From Bdellovibrionales bacterium (lineage in GTDB: Bacteria > Bdellovibrionota > Bacteriovoracia > Bacteriovoracales > Bacteriovoracaceae): 64,000 nt of DNA. Under the pieces are notes generated by a model. That model made no database searches, was not told the origin of the DNA, and worked only from the letters and a program-made list of their open reading frames with translations. The position numbers and the translations under genes are program-made. Positions 26,280 to 32,613 of this stretch are shown here, in pieces (the stretch's first letter is position 1; each line of letters opens with the position of its first letter). The stretch covers positions 3,833-67,832 of the forward strand of contig JABGUH010000039.1 of the NCBI GenBank assembly GCA_018646675.1. Reading direction: 5' to 3'.

Positions 26280-26303
26280 CTCTTCCCTCCAAAGTAGAGC
26301 TTT

Positions 26304-26323
26304 ACCCTTACAAATATTAGGGT
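26304..26323 (-). promoter_or_regulatory. Candidate operator: inverted repeat ACCCT-N10-AGGGT upstream of the 8-gene operon
   Basis: ACCCTtacaaatattAGGGT lies 25-44 nt upstream of the isochorismatase-like ATG (26279), in the 84-nt gap after the YceI-like gene. The arms are only 5 bp and no regulator gene is nearby. Weak. Confidence 0.2.
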
Positions 26324-26363
26324 ATAGGTATACTAAGAAAGGGGGTGTTTGGCCATTTAGAGC

Positions 26364-26948
26364 TTAAAGCAAAAGCTTAAATTTAATCTCAACCATGTCC
26401 CGAACAGTGGCAATCCAAATTGAAGGATCGGGAATCTTTAATGCGCTAAGCGTAACATTGGAATTTCCACTAACCAAGATCCCTTCAGCAACTTCTTTTA
26501 TCGTAACTCTAATGGTAATTGGCAGCTCTGCTCCTCGAAGATTGATCGTAGCTGGATAACTCTGCTCCGCGACTCCAATAGTGATCGGAGCGCCTAGCTG
26601 GACTTTAATAGTCGGGTACTCTTTCGCACTAAAACATTGAGTGTACATCTTCTCATTACGCCCATCAACGTCGGTATCCATATCTTTAACTGCAAACGAG
26701 ATTGTGGCCCCCGATTGAATCGCTTTTCCCTGACGTACAAAAGTCGTATCAAATTTTTTCACCACTCCGGTAAATCCGGTGGTGATTATGCCCGCCTTAG
26801 TACTCTCCATCTCAAAGTGGAGATGAGTTGCTGCTTTTACTGCTGCTTCATAGCTACTATAAGAGAAGCTACGAGTGGTATCAGCAGCAAATATCGTTAG
26901 GGAGAAAATCAACAGGGAGAAAACAGTAACAAATCTCATCTTGAACAC
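26364..26948 (-). CDS. Secreted YceI-like (polyisoprenoid/lipid-binding beta-barrel) protein
   Basis: 194 aa with signal peptide MFKMRFVTVFSLLIFSLTIFA. The pattern is YceI-like: HLHFEMES..GIITTGFTGVVKKF, KDMDTDVDGRNEKM...FSAKEYPTIKV and INLRGAELPITIRV. Confidence 0.55.
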   Translation of the reverse strand: MFKMRFVTVFSLLIFSLTIFAADTTRSFSYSSYEAAVKAATHLHFEMESTKAGIITTGFTGVVKKFDTTFVRQGKAIQSGATISFAVKDMDTDVDGRNEKMYTQCFSAKEYPTIKVQLGAPITIGVAEQSYPATINLRGAELPITIRVTIKEVAEGILVSGNSNVTLSALKIPDPSIWIATVRDMVEIKFKLLL

Positions 26949-26970
26949 CTCATAAGTTTCAAATTATAGT

Positions 26971-28149
26971 TTATACTTTCAATAATCTCTTCAGCCCTTC
27001 CAATGGAGAGTAGATATTACCAATAATTCCCAAGAAGATATCCCCTCGCTCTCGCCTCTTAATCAGAGCGGCAATCAACCAGATCAACCATGGAATCTTA
27101 ATAATAAATTGAAATGCAGTATTTAAAATAACTTTATGGCGAAAAAATACCCTCTTACGTTCAGCATATCGAGTTAAGGCTTGCTGGTAAAGGTGGCTTG
27201 ACTTGCCAACACCAACATTAGTTAACTCACTGGCCAGAGTGTTGGCACTCCAAAGTGCAACAAACATTCCCTCGCCGGTTAAGGGGTCTAAAAAGCCAGC
27301 AGCATCACCAATCAGTGTTGCATTTTTGGCGACAATTTTATCCATATGGTTAGTCAAAGGGGTAACACTACTAATACCGACGCTCTCTGGAATCGAGCCA
27401 TATCTTGCCTCTAGCTGATCTGAGAGCATAATAAAACTGTTTAAAAGAGCTCTTGGATTTTTCTCCTGCTTAAAAAGGCTGCTATCACAAACTAATGAGA
27501 GATTGACCTCATACTCCCCGGTTGGGTCTATTCCAATATAGTTACCATCGGAAAAGATATGCATCTCCCCTTGTCGACGGTTAAGCTGTTTTGCTTGTAA
27601 GTGGCACTGCAGGGCCACCTTGGAAGTATCGATCCCCTCCTTGAGGCCCAGCTCACGAGCAGTGAAAGAGTGGCGGCCATCTGCACCGACCAGTAGATTT
27701 GCCTCAATCTGCTCTGAATCCTTCAACTGCAACAAAAAGCCATCACTTCCTTGCGAAGTAATCTGGTTTACAGTTGTACCAAGACGAACCGTCACCCCGG
27801 CCGCTTGCGCCAAATCAAGGAACTTGCGATCCAAACTCTCCCGATTAACTGCAATCCCTAACTGTTTTCCTCCATGTGATGGAAAAGTGGCATCAACATG
27901 GTAACGATTAAGAGCAAAAATTTGCATTCCAGTAATGGGAAGAAATTGATCTACAATCTCCTCCTTTAGCCCGATACTCTTTAATAACGAGACACCCGAA
28001 GGGCAGAGATATTCACCACACACTTTACGCCTGATGGTGGCCGCCCGTTCCAGCACTATGACTGAAAATCCTCCCAGTGCTAGTTGACGTGCACAAAGAG
28101 ATCCTGCGGGTCCTCCCCCAACAATGGCAACATCAAATTTAGCTTTCAC
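26971..28149 (-). CDS. FAD-dependent oxidoreductase (geranylgeranyl-reductase / flavin monooxygenase-like) with a C-terminal membrane helix
   Basis: 392 aa. The dinucleotide-binding motif is DVAIVGGGPAGS and the second FAD motif is GDAAGFLDPLTGEGM. A hydrophobic C-terminal segment is FQFIIKIPWLIWLIAALI. Overlaps the upstream exporter gene by 11 nt. Confidence 0.72.
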   Translation of the reverse strand: MKAKFDVAIVGGGPAGSLCARQLALGGFSVIVLERAATIRRKVCGEYLCPSGVSLLKSIGLKEEIVDQFLPITGMQIFALNRYHVDATFPSHGGKQLGIAVNRESLDRKFLDLAQAAGVTVRLGTTVNQITSQGSDGFLLQLKDSEQIEANLLVGADGRHSFTARELGLKEGIDTSKVALQCHLQAKQLNRRQGEMHIFSDGNYIGIDPTGEYEVNLSLVCDSSLFKQEKNPRALLNSFIMLSDQLEARYGSIPESVGISSVTPLTNHMDKIVAKNATLIGDAAGFLDPLTGEGMFVALWSANTLASELTNVGVGKSSHLYQQALTRYAERKRVFFRHKVILNTAFQFIIKIPWLIWLIAALIKRRERGDIFLGIIGNIYSPLEGLKRLLKV

Positions 28150-30241
28150 TCACCGACTCCTTGATCCGATTATGGCCCAACAAGAGGGAGGGCAGAATAT
28201 AGAGGTCAAACAGCAAGCCGAAAAAGAGTATAATACCAAGATTAATTCCAAATTGTCTGATCGGCAAAAATTGGTTGGCCCCCAGCAATATAACACTGCC
28301 AATTAGCAGCAGAGAGCTGCTGACAATGGGAAGAATAGTGGTGGTCAGATAGTACTCAAAGCCTCTATGGCCCCCACTTCTTAAGGCATGTAACATATGA
28401 AAAGATGAGTCAACAATCATCCCCATGGCGATGGAGTAGGTCATCACAGTTGCAATATTTAAAGATAAATTTAACAGGTAACTAACAAATAGAGCTAAAA
28501 ATGCAGGTCCGATATTAACAATTAAAAAGATAAAAAAGAGCGAAGCCTTACGCAGATAGAGAGAGGCAATCAAACCAACCACGAGTAGTGCAATCAAAAA
28601 GCTTTGAGTTAAAATAGTTATCATCGCCTTTTGCGAGATCATCAGGTTGTAGTAAATACCATTAATCTGATAGCTGATCCCCTGTCGATCTAGATAGTTT
28701 CGCACAATCTCTAGGCCCTGGTGATAATCAGCAAAGTTAACTGGCACCCCTAGAAGTGACATTTTATAGTGATCATTAATCGGATAAGATCCTCTTATCC
28801 CCTCTTTAAGGCGTCCCCAAAGTAGCTGGTAGGCAGGAAGACTAGATGGCAAAATATCTAAACCGGAGTAGACTTTGTTTGCCGACTTTACCATCGAGTT
28901 GGCCGATAGTAGCTGGTCCGCTTTTAACTGAGGGGGGAGAAGGGTGACCAACTTTCGCTCCAGGCGATCAAACTTGATAATATCACCGGGGGTCAACCTC
29001 TCAGACGGAAGTTCGATCAGAATGTCATAAAGGGGAATACCGACTACTCGTTGATGGACAGAGTCGATCGAAGCTTTGATCCCATTGTCCTCTGGGAAGT
29101 AACGGGTCGCATCGGTTATCACCTCAATGCGACCAGCGGCCCATATTCCCAAAATTGATGATCCAATCATCAAGATCACAATCCACTTGCGAGGTAGAGA
29201 GTAGGTAACGAGTGGAGCAATCAAGCGATCTAAAGGGAAAAATCTTTTTAGGGTTAGAGCATTATTTAACAAAAAATCGCTACAAAGATAAAACCAAGCA
29301 AGCGAGTATAGCGATAATATTGGAATTAATACTGCTAACAGCATCCCAAACTGGGAGATCACCGTAATGGGGGCCACAACTAACGATCCAAAGCCGACAC
29401 TGGTGGTTAGAATCATTAGAGTAATCGGCCTCCCCTTCTCCCTCCAGGCCAAGGTAAAACTTTTTGTCCTGATAATCGAAAAATAGAGATGAAAATTTAG
29501 CGCCAAGGTGATGGAAAAAGCCATTAGCGGTACAATCGAGCTGACCATATTGACCGAGCCAAAAAACAGCTTAATTGGCACCAGTGAGATTGGAGCAGCA
29601 AATAGCGCCGGAAGAAATATTCCCAGTGCAGTCCATAGGTTGCGGCTCACCAGCAGTATTATAATCAGTGAACAGAGCATCAACAGGGGGAAGGCGCGCT
29701 CTTTAATCGCTCGTGAGTAGTGATCCAGTAGATAGTTAGTATAGGGAGTACCGGCAAACTCCAACAACTTAATCAGTGGGCCACCACTGAACTGCTCCTT
29801 AATCTGCTCAATTAACAAGGCAAAGGTAGTTTCACGCTCTCTGGAGGTAACTAAAAAAGAGAGATGATTATCTCCCATCAAACGAACAGGTCCAGCTAGA
29901 AACTCCTCTCTCTTCAGGGCCTGCTCAACCTTGTGAGGGCCACCATAGAGGTCGGCAGGAGTAATAAATTCAAATTTATCATCATGAGCGGCGATTAGGC
30001 GGTCAATCTTTTGCTGTAACTGTTGGTAGCGCTCAACTGACCGATCTCTGAGGCCAGGGGCGAGCAGCAAAGAGACGACTAACACCGGATGTTCCTGGGC
30101 ACCAGAGAGAAATTGTTGATACTCAGTTAATCCATCAGTGGTTAGAAAGATAGTCTCATGGTTGCGCTGAGCTAAATCACTAGTATAGATTGCACTAGCA
30201 ACTCCCAAAAGGAAAAGGAGCAATGGCAGTGCCGTTTTCAA
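28139..30241 (-). CDS. MMPL/RND-superfamily-like exporter
   Basis: 700 aa. The topology, read by eye, has an N-terminal anchor, a ~170-aa soluble loop and a block of ~5 TM helices. A second ~170-aa loop and another block of 5-6 TM helices follow. This is the MMPL/RND-type duplication. The TTG start lies 8 nt after GGAG. The family call is by architecture, not by motif. Confidence 0.6.
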   Translation of the reverse strand: MKTALPLLLFLLGVASAIYTSDLAQRNHETIFLTTDGLTEYQQFLSGAQEHPVLVVSLLLAPGLRDRSVERYQQLQQKIDRLIAAHDDKFEFITPADLYGGPHKVEQALKREEFLAGPVRLMGDNHLSFLVTSRERETTFALLIEQIKEQFSGGPLIKLLEFAGTPYTNYLLDHYSRAIKERAFPLLMLCSLIIILLVSRNLWTALGIFLPALFAAPISLVPIKLFFGSVNMVSSIVPLMAFSITLALNFHLYFSIIRTKSFTLAWREKGRPITLMILTTSVGFGSLVVAPITVISQFGMLLAVLIPILSLYSLAWFYLCSDFLLNNALTLKRFFPLDRLIAPLVTYSLPRKWIVILMIGSSILGIWAAGRIEVITDATRYFPEDNGIKASIDSVHQRVVGIPLYDILIELPSERLTPGDIIKFDRLERKLVTLLPPQLKADQLLSANSMVKSANKVYSGLDILPSSLPAYQLLWGRLKEGIRGSYPINDHYKMSLLGVPVNFADYHQGLEIVRNYLDRQGISYQINGIYYNLMISQKAMITILTQSFLIALLVVGLIASLYLRKASLFFIFLIVNIGPAFLALFVSYLLNLSLNIATVMTYSIAMGMIVDSSFHMLHALRSGGHRGFEYYLTTTILPIVSSSLLLIGSVILLGANQFLPIRQFGINLGIILFFGLLFDLYILPSLLLGHNRIKESVSES

Positions 30242-30244
30242 AGT

Positions 30245-31300
30245 TTATCTCCACTCCAACAGAATACTCTGGGCGGTAAAACCGGGGCCAAATGCCAACA
30301 TATATCCCTTCGCCCCTGCTTGAAACTCCTGTTGCTGCAACATGCGGTTTAATACAAAAATAACTGTCGCACTACTCATATTGCCATACTCCCGCAAGAT
30401 CGCCTTTGAGTCCAAAATATTGCGATCATAGGTGGTCAGATACTCTTCAACCATATGGGATATCTTCTTACCCCCGGGATGAAAAATATAGTGAGCAACA
30501 TCCTGAAAGGAGAGCCCATTGCGTTTGAAAAATGGCTCAATAATTCCCGGAAAATGAGACTGTATCTCAAACGGCACATCCTTATCCAGTACAATTTTAA
30601 GGCCAGAGTTGGTCAGATGATACCCCATCAGGTGAGTATTATCCGGAAAATGGTACATCGAGGTGTCAATAATAGTTGGCGCAACCTGGGGAGTATCCCC
30701 CAAAATGACACAAGAGGCTCCATCAGCAAAAGTTGCTGCACTGACGAAGTTCTCCATCGAGTGATCACCCTTTTGAAAAGTGATGGTGGGGGTCTCCACT
30801 GAGACTAGTGCCACCCTCTTTCCGGGGTTGCCCTTTAAGTATTGATGGGCATAGATCAGGCCAGAAGTTCCACCAGCACATCCCATCTCCGTTACTGGCA
30901 GTCGTTCAATATCTCCACGCATTTTTAACTGGTTAACTAGATAGGCATCCACCGATGGGATCATAAAGCCAGTACAACTGGTAGTTATAATGTAATCAAT
31001 ATCTGTTGGCTTTAGATCTGCCTTGGCCAGGGCCAAGAGGAGAACCTTCTCCCCCATTTTCTTCATCGCTTCTATATAGAGGTCATTTTTCTCCTCAAAT
31101 GACAGGTCGGAGAAGATCTGCTCAATTGGTAGTACTGAGCAACGAGAGTCAATATTGGATCCCTTCAATATAGTAACTGCTTTCCGCGCCGTCCGAGGGT
31201 CAACCGCTACAAACCAGCTGCGCTTTAAATAATCAACAATTTCAGGAGTCTCATAACGATACTCTCCCGGCAGTGCTGCTGTAGCGATCACCTTGCTCAT
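30245..31300 (-). CDS. Type III polyketide synthase (chalcone-synthase-like)
   Basis: The Cys-His-Asn triad sits in CHS-type contexts: ITTSCTGFMIPS, YIFHPGGKKI and YGNMSSATV. A C-terminal AFGPGFT is also present. This is not the FabH pattern. The ATG at 31300 (MSKVIATAALPG...) is preceded by GGGGGAGAG; the track start is 31321. Confidence 0.85.
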   Translation of the reverse strand: MSKVIATAALPGEYRYETPEIVDYLKRSWFVAVDPRTARKAVTILKGSNIDSRCSVLPIEQIFSDLSFEEKNDLYIEAMKKMGEKVLLLALAKADLKPTDIDYIITTSCTGFMIPSVDAYLVNQLKMRGDIERLPVTEMGCAGGTSGLIYAHQYLKGNPGKRVALVSVETPTITFQKGDHSMENFVSAATFADGASCVILGDTPQVAPTIIDTSMYHFPDNTHLMGYHLTNSGLKIVLDKDVPFEIQSHFPGIIEPFFKRNGLSFQDVAHYIFHPGGKKISHMVEEYLTTYDRNILDSKAILREYGNMSSATVIFVLNRMLQQQEFQAGAKGYMLAFGPGFTAQSILLEWR

Positions 31301-31482
31301 ACACTCTCCCCCCACCAGCATCTGTTAGATAAGCCACCATTATACTCACAATTCAAGAATTGTCGGTTTCTTAATGTTATTATTTTGTATTTATTGGCCT
31401 TAAATGCTACTCTTTCGACCTTTTTATATCGATATAAATTTTAATAATGATAATTAATATCAAAAAAATGGAGTTAAGCAAG

Positions 31483-32613
31483 ATGAAGAGAATCGCCCTA
31501 CTACTATGCTGCCTACTGTTTCTAATCGCCTGTCAAGAGCAGACCACTCACCAGACCACCTCATTGGCAGGGGCCGCTAGTGCTAGCTGCTCTAGTGACA
31601 ATGCTACTCCTACTACCAGTGGAAACAGAGCACTATTCTCCATCGGCAAGCAGAGTTTTTTTACGACAGATCTTTCAGCCGAGGCGCAAGATGCTATCTA
31701 TACAGCTCAACAACAAGCCTATCAAAAGGTAAGCGCTATCGCCCAAGAGCATGCGCTAAAAGTAGTCCTATCCAAAAAGGCGGGTAAATTTAAGGCCAAT
31801 GCTCCTCTTCCTCCATTGGCCGATCTTCTCACTCTTCCAACTCCCAACGAAAAGGAGCTGAAGAAATTCTTTGATGCCAACAAGCACCGTCTACCTCCAG
31901 AGGCAACCTATGAGCAGATGAAGGGACAGATTCAAAACTACCTCAAGGGCCAACAGATGGGGGCAATATTCAAGCAGCAGGTAGAGGAGATGAAGAAGAG
32001 TCAAGGCTTTCAACTTCATCTGGCCGCTCCGCTCTCCCCTTCGATCAATATTAAGACGGCAGCGTATCCTACCCGTGGTGACAGCAGTTCTAAAGTTAAG
32101 GTAATTGAGGTCTCCGACTATCTCTGTCCCCACTGTCAACACGCGCACCATGAAGTTCAAGAGATTGTAAAAAAATATGGCGATAAAATCCAACTAACCC
32201 AAATTAACTTCTCTCTACGTCCTAATGGTCTAAGCGGCACCTTTGTGCGTGGGGCCCTATGCACTCAAAAGCTGGCGCCCAAAAAATTCTGGGAGTACCA
32301 CAAACTTGCCTTCGCCATGGCTGAAGCAAAGCCCAAGACAGATCAAGAGCAAAAAACTTACATGGCCATTTTACAAGATGGAAAATCAGCAGCAGCGGTA
32401 ACAAAAATCGCCACGCTGGCAACTCACTTAAAGATCTCCCCCGCAAAATTCGAAAGCTGTATAAAAGATCCGAAGATTGCCGCCAGAGTTGTGGCCATCG
32501 GAGATCAACTATCCAAGCTGGGGATACGTGGGACTCCCCTCTTTATCGTTAACAACAAGAAGCTAGCGGGTGGAGCACATCAACTAGAAGAGGCAATCAA
32601 AAAAGCACTCTAG
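31483..32613 (+). CDS. DsbA-family thiol:disulfide oxidoreductase lipoprotein with a long N-terminal extension
   Basis: CPHC active site (VIEVSDYLCPHCQHAH) and cis-Pro loop GTPLFIV. The preferred start is ATG 31483, 9 nt after GGAG. It gives MKRIALLLCCLLFLIAC, with lipobox L-I-A-C. About 190 aa of helical Q/K-rich extension precede the thioredoxin fold. Confidence 0.7.
   Translation: MKRIALLLCCLLFLIACQEQTTHQTTSLAGAASASCSSDNATPTTSGNRALFSIGKQSFFTTDLSAEAQDAIYTAQQQAYQKVSAIAQEHALKVVLSKKAGKFKANAPLPPLADLLTLPTPNEKELKKFFDANKHRLPPEATYEQMKGQIQNYLKGQQMGAIFKQQVEEMKKSQGFQLHLAAPLSPSINIKTAAYPTRGDSSSKVKVIEVSDYLCPHCQHAHHEVQEIVKKYGDKIQLTQINFSLRPNGLSGTFVRGALCTQKLAPKKFWEYHKLAFAMAEAKPKTDQEQKTYMAILQDGKSAAAVTKIATLATHLKISPAKFESCIKDPKIAARVVAIGDQLSKLGIRGTPLFIVNNKKLAGGAHQLEEAIKKAL

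Follow-up and report, generated by a model that had tools for sequence, protein, structure and literature searches.

A type III polyketide synthase, RND transporter, flavoprotein and YceI cassette in Bacteriovoracaceae as a probable unit for synthesis and export of a phenolic lipid

The four-gene operon

The window analyzed here, that is, the whole 64,000-nucleotide stretch from contig JABGUH010000039.1 of a Bdellovibrionales bacterium whose nearest named relatives are Bacteriovorax and Halobacteriovorax, carries a minus-strand operon of four genes, which encode a type III polyketide synthase (PKS), a transporter of the RND superfamily, a flavin adenine dinucleotide (FAD)-dependent oxidoreductase and a probably secreted lipocalin of the YceI family. 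We propose that this operon probably makes and exports a long-chain phenolic lipid. The classes of the four proteins and the linkage of their genes are established, and the product, the direction of transport and the destination are what we infer.

The open reading frames (ORFs) given in a preliminary description of the locus were exact in position (Table 1), and its account of co-directional, tightly packed genes was borne out by these coordinates, which place a 3-nt gap between the PKS and RND genes, an 11-nt overlap between the RND and flavoprotein genes and a 22-nt gap between the flavoprotein and YceI genes. The flavoprotein gene, which overlaps the RND gene, lies two genes downstream of the PKS gene.

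Table 1. Coordinates of the operon genes and adjoining features in the window, with the basis of each assignment
Feature	Position	Strand	Basis or remark
Promoter-like site, CCGACA-16-TATAAT, 10/12	31339..31366	-	Consensus scan and sequence; pattern match only
Type III PKS, 358 amino acids (aa; longest ORF)	30245..31321	-	Pfam PF00195 and PF02797, PDB matches, catalytic triad
RND-superfamily lipid transporter (MmpL/HpnN-like fold), 700 aa	28139..30241	-	Hydropathy, AlphaFold2 (AF2) model, Foldseek, weak NCBIfam matches
FAD-dependent oxidoreductase of the geranylgeranyl reductase (GGR)/UbiH-type superfamily, 392 aa	26971..28149	-	Pfam, NCBIfam, PDB alignments
Probably secreted YceI-family lipocalin, 194 aa	26364..26948	-	Pfam, hydropathy, profile search, AF2 model and Foldseek
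DsbA/thioredoxin-fold protein, 388 aa, with lipobox LIAC and CPHC active site	31447-32613	+	Divergent from the PKS operon

Conservation and layouts of the cassette

The order PKS, RND, flavoprotein, YceI was also found in a JGI contig syntenic with the window, in a Logan contig and in Halobacteriovorax sp. HLS, and the flanks of the latter two cassettes were unrelated to those of the window. A transporter profile run against 401 Bdellovibrionota genomes retrieved about 40 orthologues scoring above 340 bits, separated by a wide gap from paralogues of 760–800 aa, which scored 180 bits or less; these orthologues lay almost all within the window's own family and were patchy within genera. An alignment-based scan of named genomes gave 43 transporter loci, all from Bdellovibrionota plus two from Planctomycetota, and in a global protein library the orthologue family comprised about 100 representatives at 50% identity.

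Linkage was counted at the 24 transporter loci with at least 5 kb on each flank, a PKS being scored within 6 kb of the transporter. A type III PKS was found in this range at all 24 loci, accompanied by YceI at 20, by the flavoprotein at 19, and by either the flavoprotein or a U32 protein at 21, while a methyltransferase occurred at 16 and a small membrane-anchored LuxR/GerE regulator at 15. The nine transporter loci of the set that lacked a PKS were each truncated at one side. At two further loci of Bacteriovoracaceae (L050 and L051), a transporter orthologue of 30–33% identity was seen with no PKS, flavoprotein or YceI gene within 7 kb. The pairwise identities of PKS and transporter co-varied (Mantel r 0.68, 0/2000 permutations). 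In Planctomycetota (L130–L134), several genes for PKSs 36–38% identical to that of the window adjoin a more distant RND gene (23–29% identity), so that the pairing of PKS and RND is not confined to the present orthologue family.

The loci differed in gene order, in their flanks and even in the clade of the PKS, and the cassettes fell into several layouts. Type A, the layout of the window, comprises PKS, RND, flavoprotein and YceI genes with a divergent regulator and is free of methyltransferase. Type B1 consists of flavoprotein, PKS, ICMT methyltransferase and YceI genes with a convergent RND gene; type B2 of flavoprotein, ICMT, PKS, YceI and a second ICMT-like gene with a divergent regulator and RND gene; and type D of ICMT and PKS genes opposite an RND gene. 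Type C is free of the flavoprotein and consists of a U32 Fe-S protein, PKS, a UbiE/MenG-family methyltransferase, YceI and RND; its methyltransferase scored 186 bits, above the cut-off, and its U32 protein is divergent with many invariant Cys residues. In the Planctomycete type, PKS and flavoprotein genes are followed by a PigE-like aminotransferase gene and an RND gene. The PKSs formed two deep clades, one of types A and C and the Planctomycete type, the other of types B and D, which are 28–30% identical to each other, whereas the transporters formed one family that groups by layout.

No methyltransferase, ICMT or UbiE-like, was found in or near the window cassette, and in the window genome there was no ICMT homologue and the best UbiE-like match lay on another contig. 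The preliminary description, which had noted the lack of a methyltransferase, was thus right for the sub-type of the window but not for most relatives, which carry one. Type C was seen in Bdellovibrionales/Oligoflexia metagenome-assembled genomes (MAGs; L083, L085 and L086). The U32 family includes the O2-independent hydroxylases UbiU and UbiV, and type C may produce a lipid of this kind without the need for oxygen. In one Planctomycetota MAG, in which the cluster PKS is 55% identical to that of the window, a PigE-like class-III aminotransferase gene (L069:5386-6756) stands between the flavoprotein and RND genes, a possible sign of a lipid variant that contains nitrogen.

Gene fusions of two kinds were encountered. 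The first joins ICMT and YceI in a protein of 370–384 aa in type B1 (L064, L065, L072, L080 and L093), and the ORF lists of L038 and L056 indicate two more such fusions, while L070 and L071 encode ICMT and YceI in neighboring genes of their own. The fusion attaches a YceI domain, a periplasmic module, to the methyltransferase, which makes for a puzzling topology. The second is a natural RND::flavoprotein fusion of 1135 aa (L139:7001-10408), present on two Logan contigs in a cluster with the order YceI, a 147-aa ORF, type III PKS, RND::FAD and a UbiE-like methyltransferase. Its flavoprotein part is 38% identical to that of the window over the full length, and the order of its parts is the order of the overlapping RND and flavoprotein genes of the window. 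Both fusions suggest direct contacts between the proteins concerned.

The four-gene arrangement is far beyond chance. Chance packing, by which the adjacency of the four genes would be functionally meaningless, could draw on the missing Pfam match of the window transporter and on the unrelated catabolic operon that the cassette adjoins, but it has a negligible probability and is refuted by co-occurrence in about 40 genomes with shuffled order and differing flanks, by the co-variation of PKS and RND and by the two kinds of fusion. The earlier suggestion of a single synthesis-plus-export unit is, in turn, strongly backed by the recurrence of the genes despite rearrangement, by the same co-variation and by the fusions.

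Type III polyketide synthase

The first gene had been described as coding for a chalcone-synthase-like type III PKS, and this assignment was confirmed with Pfam, PDB and NCBIfam. The Chal_sti_synt_N and Chal_sti_synt_C domains scored 65.9 and 78.7 bits, respectively, against a Pfam cut-off of 27, and the best 60 of 112 PDB matches were all type III PKSs, headed by Mycobacterium tuberculosis Pks11 (3.5e-52, 180.7 bits). The Streptomyces coelicolor polyketide synthase 1U0M, known as the tetrahydroxynaphthalene synthase, was also among the leading matches. NCBIfam models of FabH reached 68–77 bits, compared with 157 bits for DpgA; since the FabH models score far below the type III PKS matches, the protein does not group with FabH/KAS III. 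The genome encodes no other type III PKS, and homologues carry the source annotation "alkylresorcinol/alkylpyrone synthase".

A catalytic Cys-His-Asn triad had been noted in the sequence, and its His and Asn were correctly placed, but the Cys was not. Instead of C116 in TSCTGF, which is replaced by Val in 21 of the 37 cluster PKSs, C148 of the EMGCAGG motif acts as the nucleophile, as shown by its alignment with the Pks11 position at which entry 4jat has Ser in place of Cys. The triad of C148 (GCAGG), H281 (FHPGG) and N314 (GNMSSA) is invariant in 37/37 cluster PKSs. The probable translation start is an ATG at 31300. It is preceded by the Shine-Dalgarno-like sequence GGAGAG and gives a PKS of 351 aa, the same length as the database record of the protein.

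An MG[W/Y/F] site carries Tyr or Phe in the PKS clade of the window and Trp in the type B clade. We tentatively equate it with ArsB residue 281, a position (W281) at which Trp is said to favor aldol closure to the resorcinol (PMC9927152). Membership of the window PKS in the characterized planctomycetal/HidC clade was unsupported, the enzyme sharing only 27–38% identity with most of the type III PKSs from planctomycetes. Among the named relatives with about 55% identity is a Flavobacterium enzyme whose cluster comprises a flavoprotein, a methyltransferase (MT), the PKS, FabA, a ketosynthase (KS) and an acyl carrier protein (ACP) in the order FAD-MT-PKS-FabA-KS-ACP, with neither pump nor carrier.

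RND transporter

The second gene had been read as an MMPL/RND-type exporter, an assignment that held for its duplicated topology and fold but not for a Pfam match of its own sequence. Hydropathy analysis gave the succession TM1, a loop of about 165 aa, TM2–6, TM7, a second loop of about 165 aa and TM8–12, and together with the helices of the AF2 model it defines 12 transmembrane (TM) helices and two periplasmic domains of that size. The internal duplication is also evident in the pseudo-symmetry of TM4 and TM10, in which N231 and H251 correspond to N595 and H615, respectively. The AF2 model, built on 38 orthologues, reached a pLDDT of 90.6 and a pTM of 0.88. In a Foldseek search with this model, MmpL5 and MmpL4 were matched with TM values of 0.71–0.74, HpnN with 0.64–0.69 and MmpL3 with 0.68–0.71, at a probability of 1.00, and after these came NPC1, Patched and Dispatched. 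The predicted fold thus places the transporter in the lipid-moving branch of the RND superfamily.

Matches of the sequence itself to known families were weak. NCBIfam gave HAE3 at 1.4e-4 and HpnN at 7.6e-4, both far under the cut-off, while among the 38 orthologues 21 matched ACR_tran and seven matched MMPL weakly. A single-sequence search of the PDB with phmmer returned no match, and neither did a single-sequence search of the genome contigs, although the alignment-based scan did find the orthologues.

Polar residues within the membrane were strongly conserved among the orthologues, with D611 and H615 of TM10 present in 38/38, and H251 of TM4 and D679 of TM12 each present in 37/38. No conserved Asp or Glu was found in TM4 of the orthologues, in which the counterpart of D611 by symmetry is Ser or Ala. 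This polar set differs from the proton-relay residues of MmpL3 and AcrB.

FAD-dependent oxidoreductase

The product of the third gene matches the Pfam family FAD_binding_3 and contains both the GGGPAGS and the GDAAGFLDPLTGEG motif, in agreement with its initial description as an FAD-dependent oxidoreductase. The C-terminal membrane helix ascribed to it was not upheld, as the C-terminal stretch is strongly hydrophobic in the window copy only and is amphipathic and weakly hydrophobic, rather than a conserved TM segment, in most orthologues. We therefore dropped the TM anchor and read the tail as a putative peripheral membrane-binding element.

Of the NCBIfam models, GG-red-SF (TIGR02032) scored best with 147.0 bits, just under its cut-off of 158.8, and the UbiH/UbiF/VisC/COQ6 ring hydroxylases (TIGR01988) scored 101.4 bits against a cut-off of 224.65, a likeness at the superfamily level only; QhpG, UbiM and MenJ followed with 101, 100.6 and 94.6 bits, respectively. 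The top PDB matches, all near 1e-14, were the halogenases CmlS and PltA and the archaeal lipid reductase 3OZ2. A flavin-dependent halogenase was rejected on the basis of Ile72/Thr73 at the two-lysine site of CmlS and of NYIGIDP where CmlS has WVWMIP; one of the two CmlS lysines is the catalytic Lys, and WxWxIP is the motif that defines the halogenase family. Cys43, within KVCGEYL, is invariant in 28/28 flavoproteins of the clusters, and its counterpart in the alignment with 3OZ2, an archaeal geranylgeranyl reductase, is the catalytic Cys47.

We consider the flavoprotein to be probably a ring hydroxylase. The replacement of the flavoprotein by a U32 protein and a quinol C-methyltransferase in type C points to ring hydroxylation as its function and to a quinol or quinone head group, and is, in our judgment, the best indirect evidence for this function. 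Ring and quinol chemistry is further supported by the sister layouts, which carry an ICMT methyltransferase typical of bps/srs operons, and by the scores of the flavoprotein with the UbiH/UbiM hydroxylases and with QhpG, a maturase of a quinone cofactor. A GGR-type reductase that saturates a side-chain double bond or reduces the ring, so that a plain reduced alkylresorcinol or alkylpyrone would be exported, is suggested by the top NCBIfam model, by the MenJ score and by the invariant Cys of KVCGE. We regard this as somewhat unlikely, because that top score stays under the family cut-off and the UbiH, UbiM and QhpG models score nearly as well, because of the replacement in type C, and because the characterized flavoproteins of srs, hid and pkq serve ring hydroxylation (PMC9927152, PMC10896814). 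A literature search yielded no paper linking alkylresorcinol with geranylgeranyl reductase.

YceI lipocalin

The fourth gene encodes, as initially described, a YceI-like protein with a predicted signal peptide. Pfam YceI (PF04264) scored 43.4 bits against a cut-off of 23.7, the AF2 model had a pLDDT of 90.2, and its top 21 Foldseek matches were all YceI lipocalins. A hydrophobic N-terminal segment (residues 4–22) followed by A|AD resembles a Sec signal, with the predicted signal peptide MFKMRFVTVFSLLIFSLTIFA|AD. A single-sequence PDB search found no match, whereas a profile of 24 orthologues matched solved YceI proteins. The protein belongs to a divergent subfamily with the invariant motifs STK-G and IPDPSI.

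Crystal structures of YceI proteins contain octaprenylphenol, octaprenyl phosphate or ubiquinone-8 (PMC9113575). These ligands have the same general lipid shape as an alkylphenol or alkylquinone, and the YceI protein of the operon is probably the periplasmic carrier of the product. The binding of ubiquinone-8 by YceI proteins would also suit a product acting as a redox carrier, namely, a non-isoprenoid polyketide quinone like those of Mycobacterium and Streptomyces. The RND and YceI proteins would then not supply the outer membrane but would position or buffer the quinone on the periplasmic side of the inner membrane, or shuttle electrons through the periplasm. PkQ operons indeed share the core of PKS and flavoprotein (PMC9927152), and variants of the cassette carry UbiE-type quinol methyltransferases. 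We nevertheless hold this explanation to be unlikely, as the type found in the window has no methyltransferase, a respiratory quinone would not need an RND pump, and the patchiness of the cassette even within genera matches an accessory trait better than core respiration.

Flanking region and regulator

The promoter-like site sits in an AT-rich intergenic region of 125 bp upstream of the PKS gene. On the downstream side, just 84 bp (26280-26363) lie between the YceI stop codon and the start of a catabolic operon led by an isochorismatase gene. A scan listed no terminator-like site in this gap, and read-through from the lipid operon into the catabolic operon is possible. In other genomes, the cassette and the catabolic operon were unlinked, except in the syntenic nearest relative.

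The DsbA-like lipoprotein gene was correctly recognized as a divergently transcribed neighbor. Its synteny with the cassette is limited to the nearest relative, and we rejected it as a cassette member; since the membrane-anchored LuxR/GerE regulator holds its position in most other cassettes, the gene is probably outside the unit. In the genome of the window itself, a 179-aa membrane-anchored LuxR/GerE-type regulator, 42% identical to the cassette-adjacent regulator of relatives, is encoded on a different contig (C21:97954-98493) and is unlinked to the PKS operon; it may still control the cassette.

The presence of a dedicated membrane-anchored LuxR-type regulator beside the cassette in most relatives, together with the concentration of the cassette in the predatory Bacteriovoracaceae and Halobacteriovoraceae, would agree with a secreted antibacterial or membrane-active lipid directed against prey or competitors, with the RND and YceI proteins serving secretion and self-protection. 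Alkylresorcinols and alkylquinones are membrane-active antimicrobials, which counts for this possibility. It is quite improbable, in our view, because no outer-membrane channel or secretion-system gene was linked at the loci inspected, and because the module is also found in Planctomycetota, a phylum not known for predation of this kind.

Proposed pathway

In the pathway that we favor, the type III PKS would take a fatty-acyl starter from primary metabolism, add malonyl units and cyclize the chain to a head group of the alkylresorcinol type (or the alkylpyrone type). The flavoprotein, presumably held at the cytoplasmic face beside the pump by its amphipathic tail, would most likely hydroxylate the ring to give a hydroxyquinol, oxidizable to an alkylbenzoquinone, and the type A product would be unmethylated, because the sub-type of the window has no methyltransferase. 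The RND protein, as its fold and gene context suggest, would use the proton gradient to extract the lipid from the inner membrane, with the invariant Asp611 and His615 of TM10 and His251 of TM4 as the probable proton relay. The pump would then hand the lipid to the secreted YceI protein, in which the alkyl chain would be shielded in the periplasm, and the outer membrane is the probable onward route of the YceI-bound lipid.

Several points weigh against this function in the synthesis and export of a phenolic lipid. Pfam, including MMPL (PF03176) and ACR_tran (PF00873), returned 0 families at E <= 0.01 for the window transporter, and the transporter is without the TM4 Asp of MmpL3 and AcrB. L050 and L051 are the sole exceptions to the linkage of transporter and PKS. 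With regard to the product, the Tyr or Phe of the PKS clade of the window, in place of the Trp of the other clade, could go with either mode of ring closure, Pks11, the closest relative with a solved structure, bears the name of a pyrone synthase, and Cys43, together with the best score of the flavoprotein being to the GGR superfamily model, could allow a reductase role.

A more specific proposal, which we put forward tentatively, is an undescribed envelope route in which an MmpL/HpnN-like RND pump with an unusual relay is physically coupled, on its cytoplasmic side, to the flavoprotein and an alkyl-hydroxyquinol or alkylquinone is handed directly to YceI for the outer membrane. If this were true, the YceI family would gain its first genetically defined cargo and partner, and predatory Bacteriovoracaceae would decorate their envelope with a non-isoprenoid lipid of the quinone type.

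Comparison with known systems

Phenolic lipids made by type III PKSs include the cyst alkylresorcinols of Azotobacter, the srs lipids of Streptomyces, the polyketide quinones of mycobacteria and the hierridins of cyanobacteria; to our knowledge, no study has yet addressed the transfer of such lipids to their site in an envelope of two membranes. Literature searches returned no paper in which a type III PKS is described together with both an RND pump and YceI, none on the cassette in Bdellovibrionota, and none that connects type III PKSs to YceI or to Halobacteriovorax.

Operons of the MT-FAD-T3PKS kind make alkylresorcinols, hierridins and polyketide quinones, with methylation and ring hydroxylation leading towards alkylquinones (PMC9927152, PMC10896814). 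Like the window cassette, srsABC of Streptomyces griseus, pkqABC of Mycobacterium smegmatis and Streptomyces sp. MNU77, hidABC of picocyanobacteria and the planctomycetal MT-FAD-T3PKS operons combine a type III PKS with an FAD oxidoreductase, and in layouts B1 and B2, PKS, ICMT and FAD form a trio composed like the srs, pkq, hid and planctomycetal operons. Read as a variant of the srs, pkq and hid operons, the window cassette is methyltransferase-free and is extended by an RND transporter and a probably secreted YceI protein, neither of which has been reported from those operons. A gene for a "lipid/isoprenoid-binding protein" is mentioned in passing in one "Saltatorellus" operon (PMC10896814).

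BpsA and BpsB of Bacillus subtilis, a type III PKS acting as a long-chain alkylpyrone/alkylresorcinol synthase and an ICMT-like methyltransferase, form another small operon, and in types B and D similar PKS-ICMT pairs stand beside a transporter of the family to which that of the window belongs, whereas the window genome has no ICMT gene. The Bps system is not known to include a flavoprotein, pump or carrier.

On the export side, MmpL3, MmpL4/5 and HpnN share their fold and topology with the window transporter, move lipids outward and are linked to lipid biosynthesis genes. The window transporter differs from them in its low identity (11–14%), in having Asp and His in TM10 and His in TM4 instead of the TM4 Asp, and in lacking a C-terminal cytoplasmic domain and an MmpS partner, in place of which it has a YceI lipocalin partner. 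The fold of this lipocalin matches that of Escherichia coli YceI, Thermus thermophilus TT1927b, Burkholderia cenocepacia BcnA and Neisseria meningitidis GNA1030, which are secreted eight-stranded beta-barrels with a tunnel for a hydrophobic chain. The genes of these YceI proteins are generally found linked to one for cytochrome b561, and no biosynthetic partner of the proteins is known (PMC9113575), whereas that of the window is embedded in a polyketide lipid operon and is fused to a methyltransferase in some relatives. Given that YceI is very widespread in Gram-negative bacteria and that its natural role is debated, this cassette, like its relatives, is a small system of four genes, open to experiment, in which lipid synthesis is tied to a pump of the MmpL/HpnN-like type and to YceI as a carrier. 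The cassettes also provide a first lead on specialized lipids of the predatory Bacteriovoracaceae and Halobacteriovoraceae, some of which are culturable.

The aryl-polyene clusters of Gram-negative bacteria similarly combine the synthesis of a polyketide-type lipid with a dedicated RND/MMPL-like exporter and with small lipid carriers that serve its transfer through the periplasm to the outer membrane, but they differ in their type II fatty acid synthase-like synthase, the LolA-like fold of the carrier and the product. Compared with these systems, we read the synthesis half of the window cassette as a known kind of pathway, and its new features as the lack of a methyltransferase and the dedicated export arm of an RND transporter and a YceI protein.

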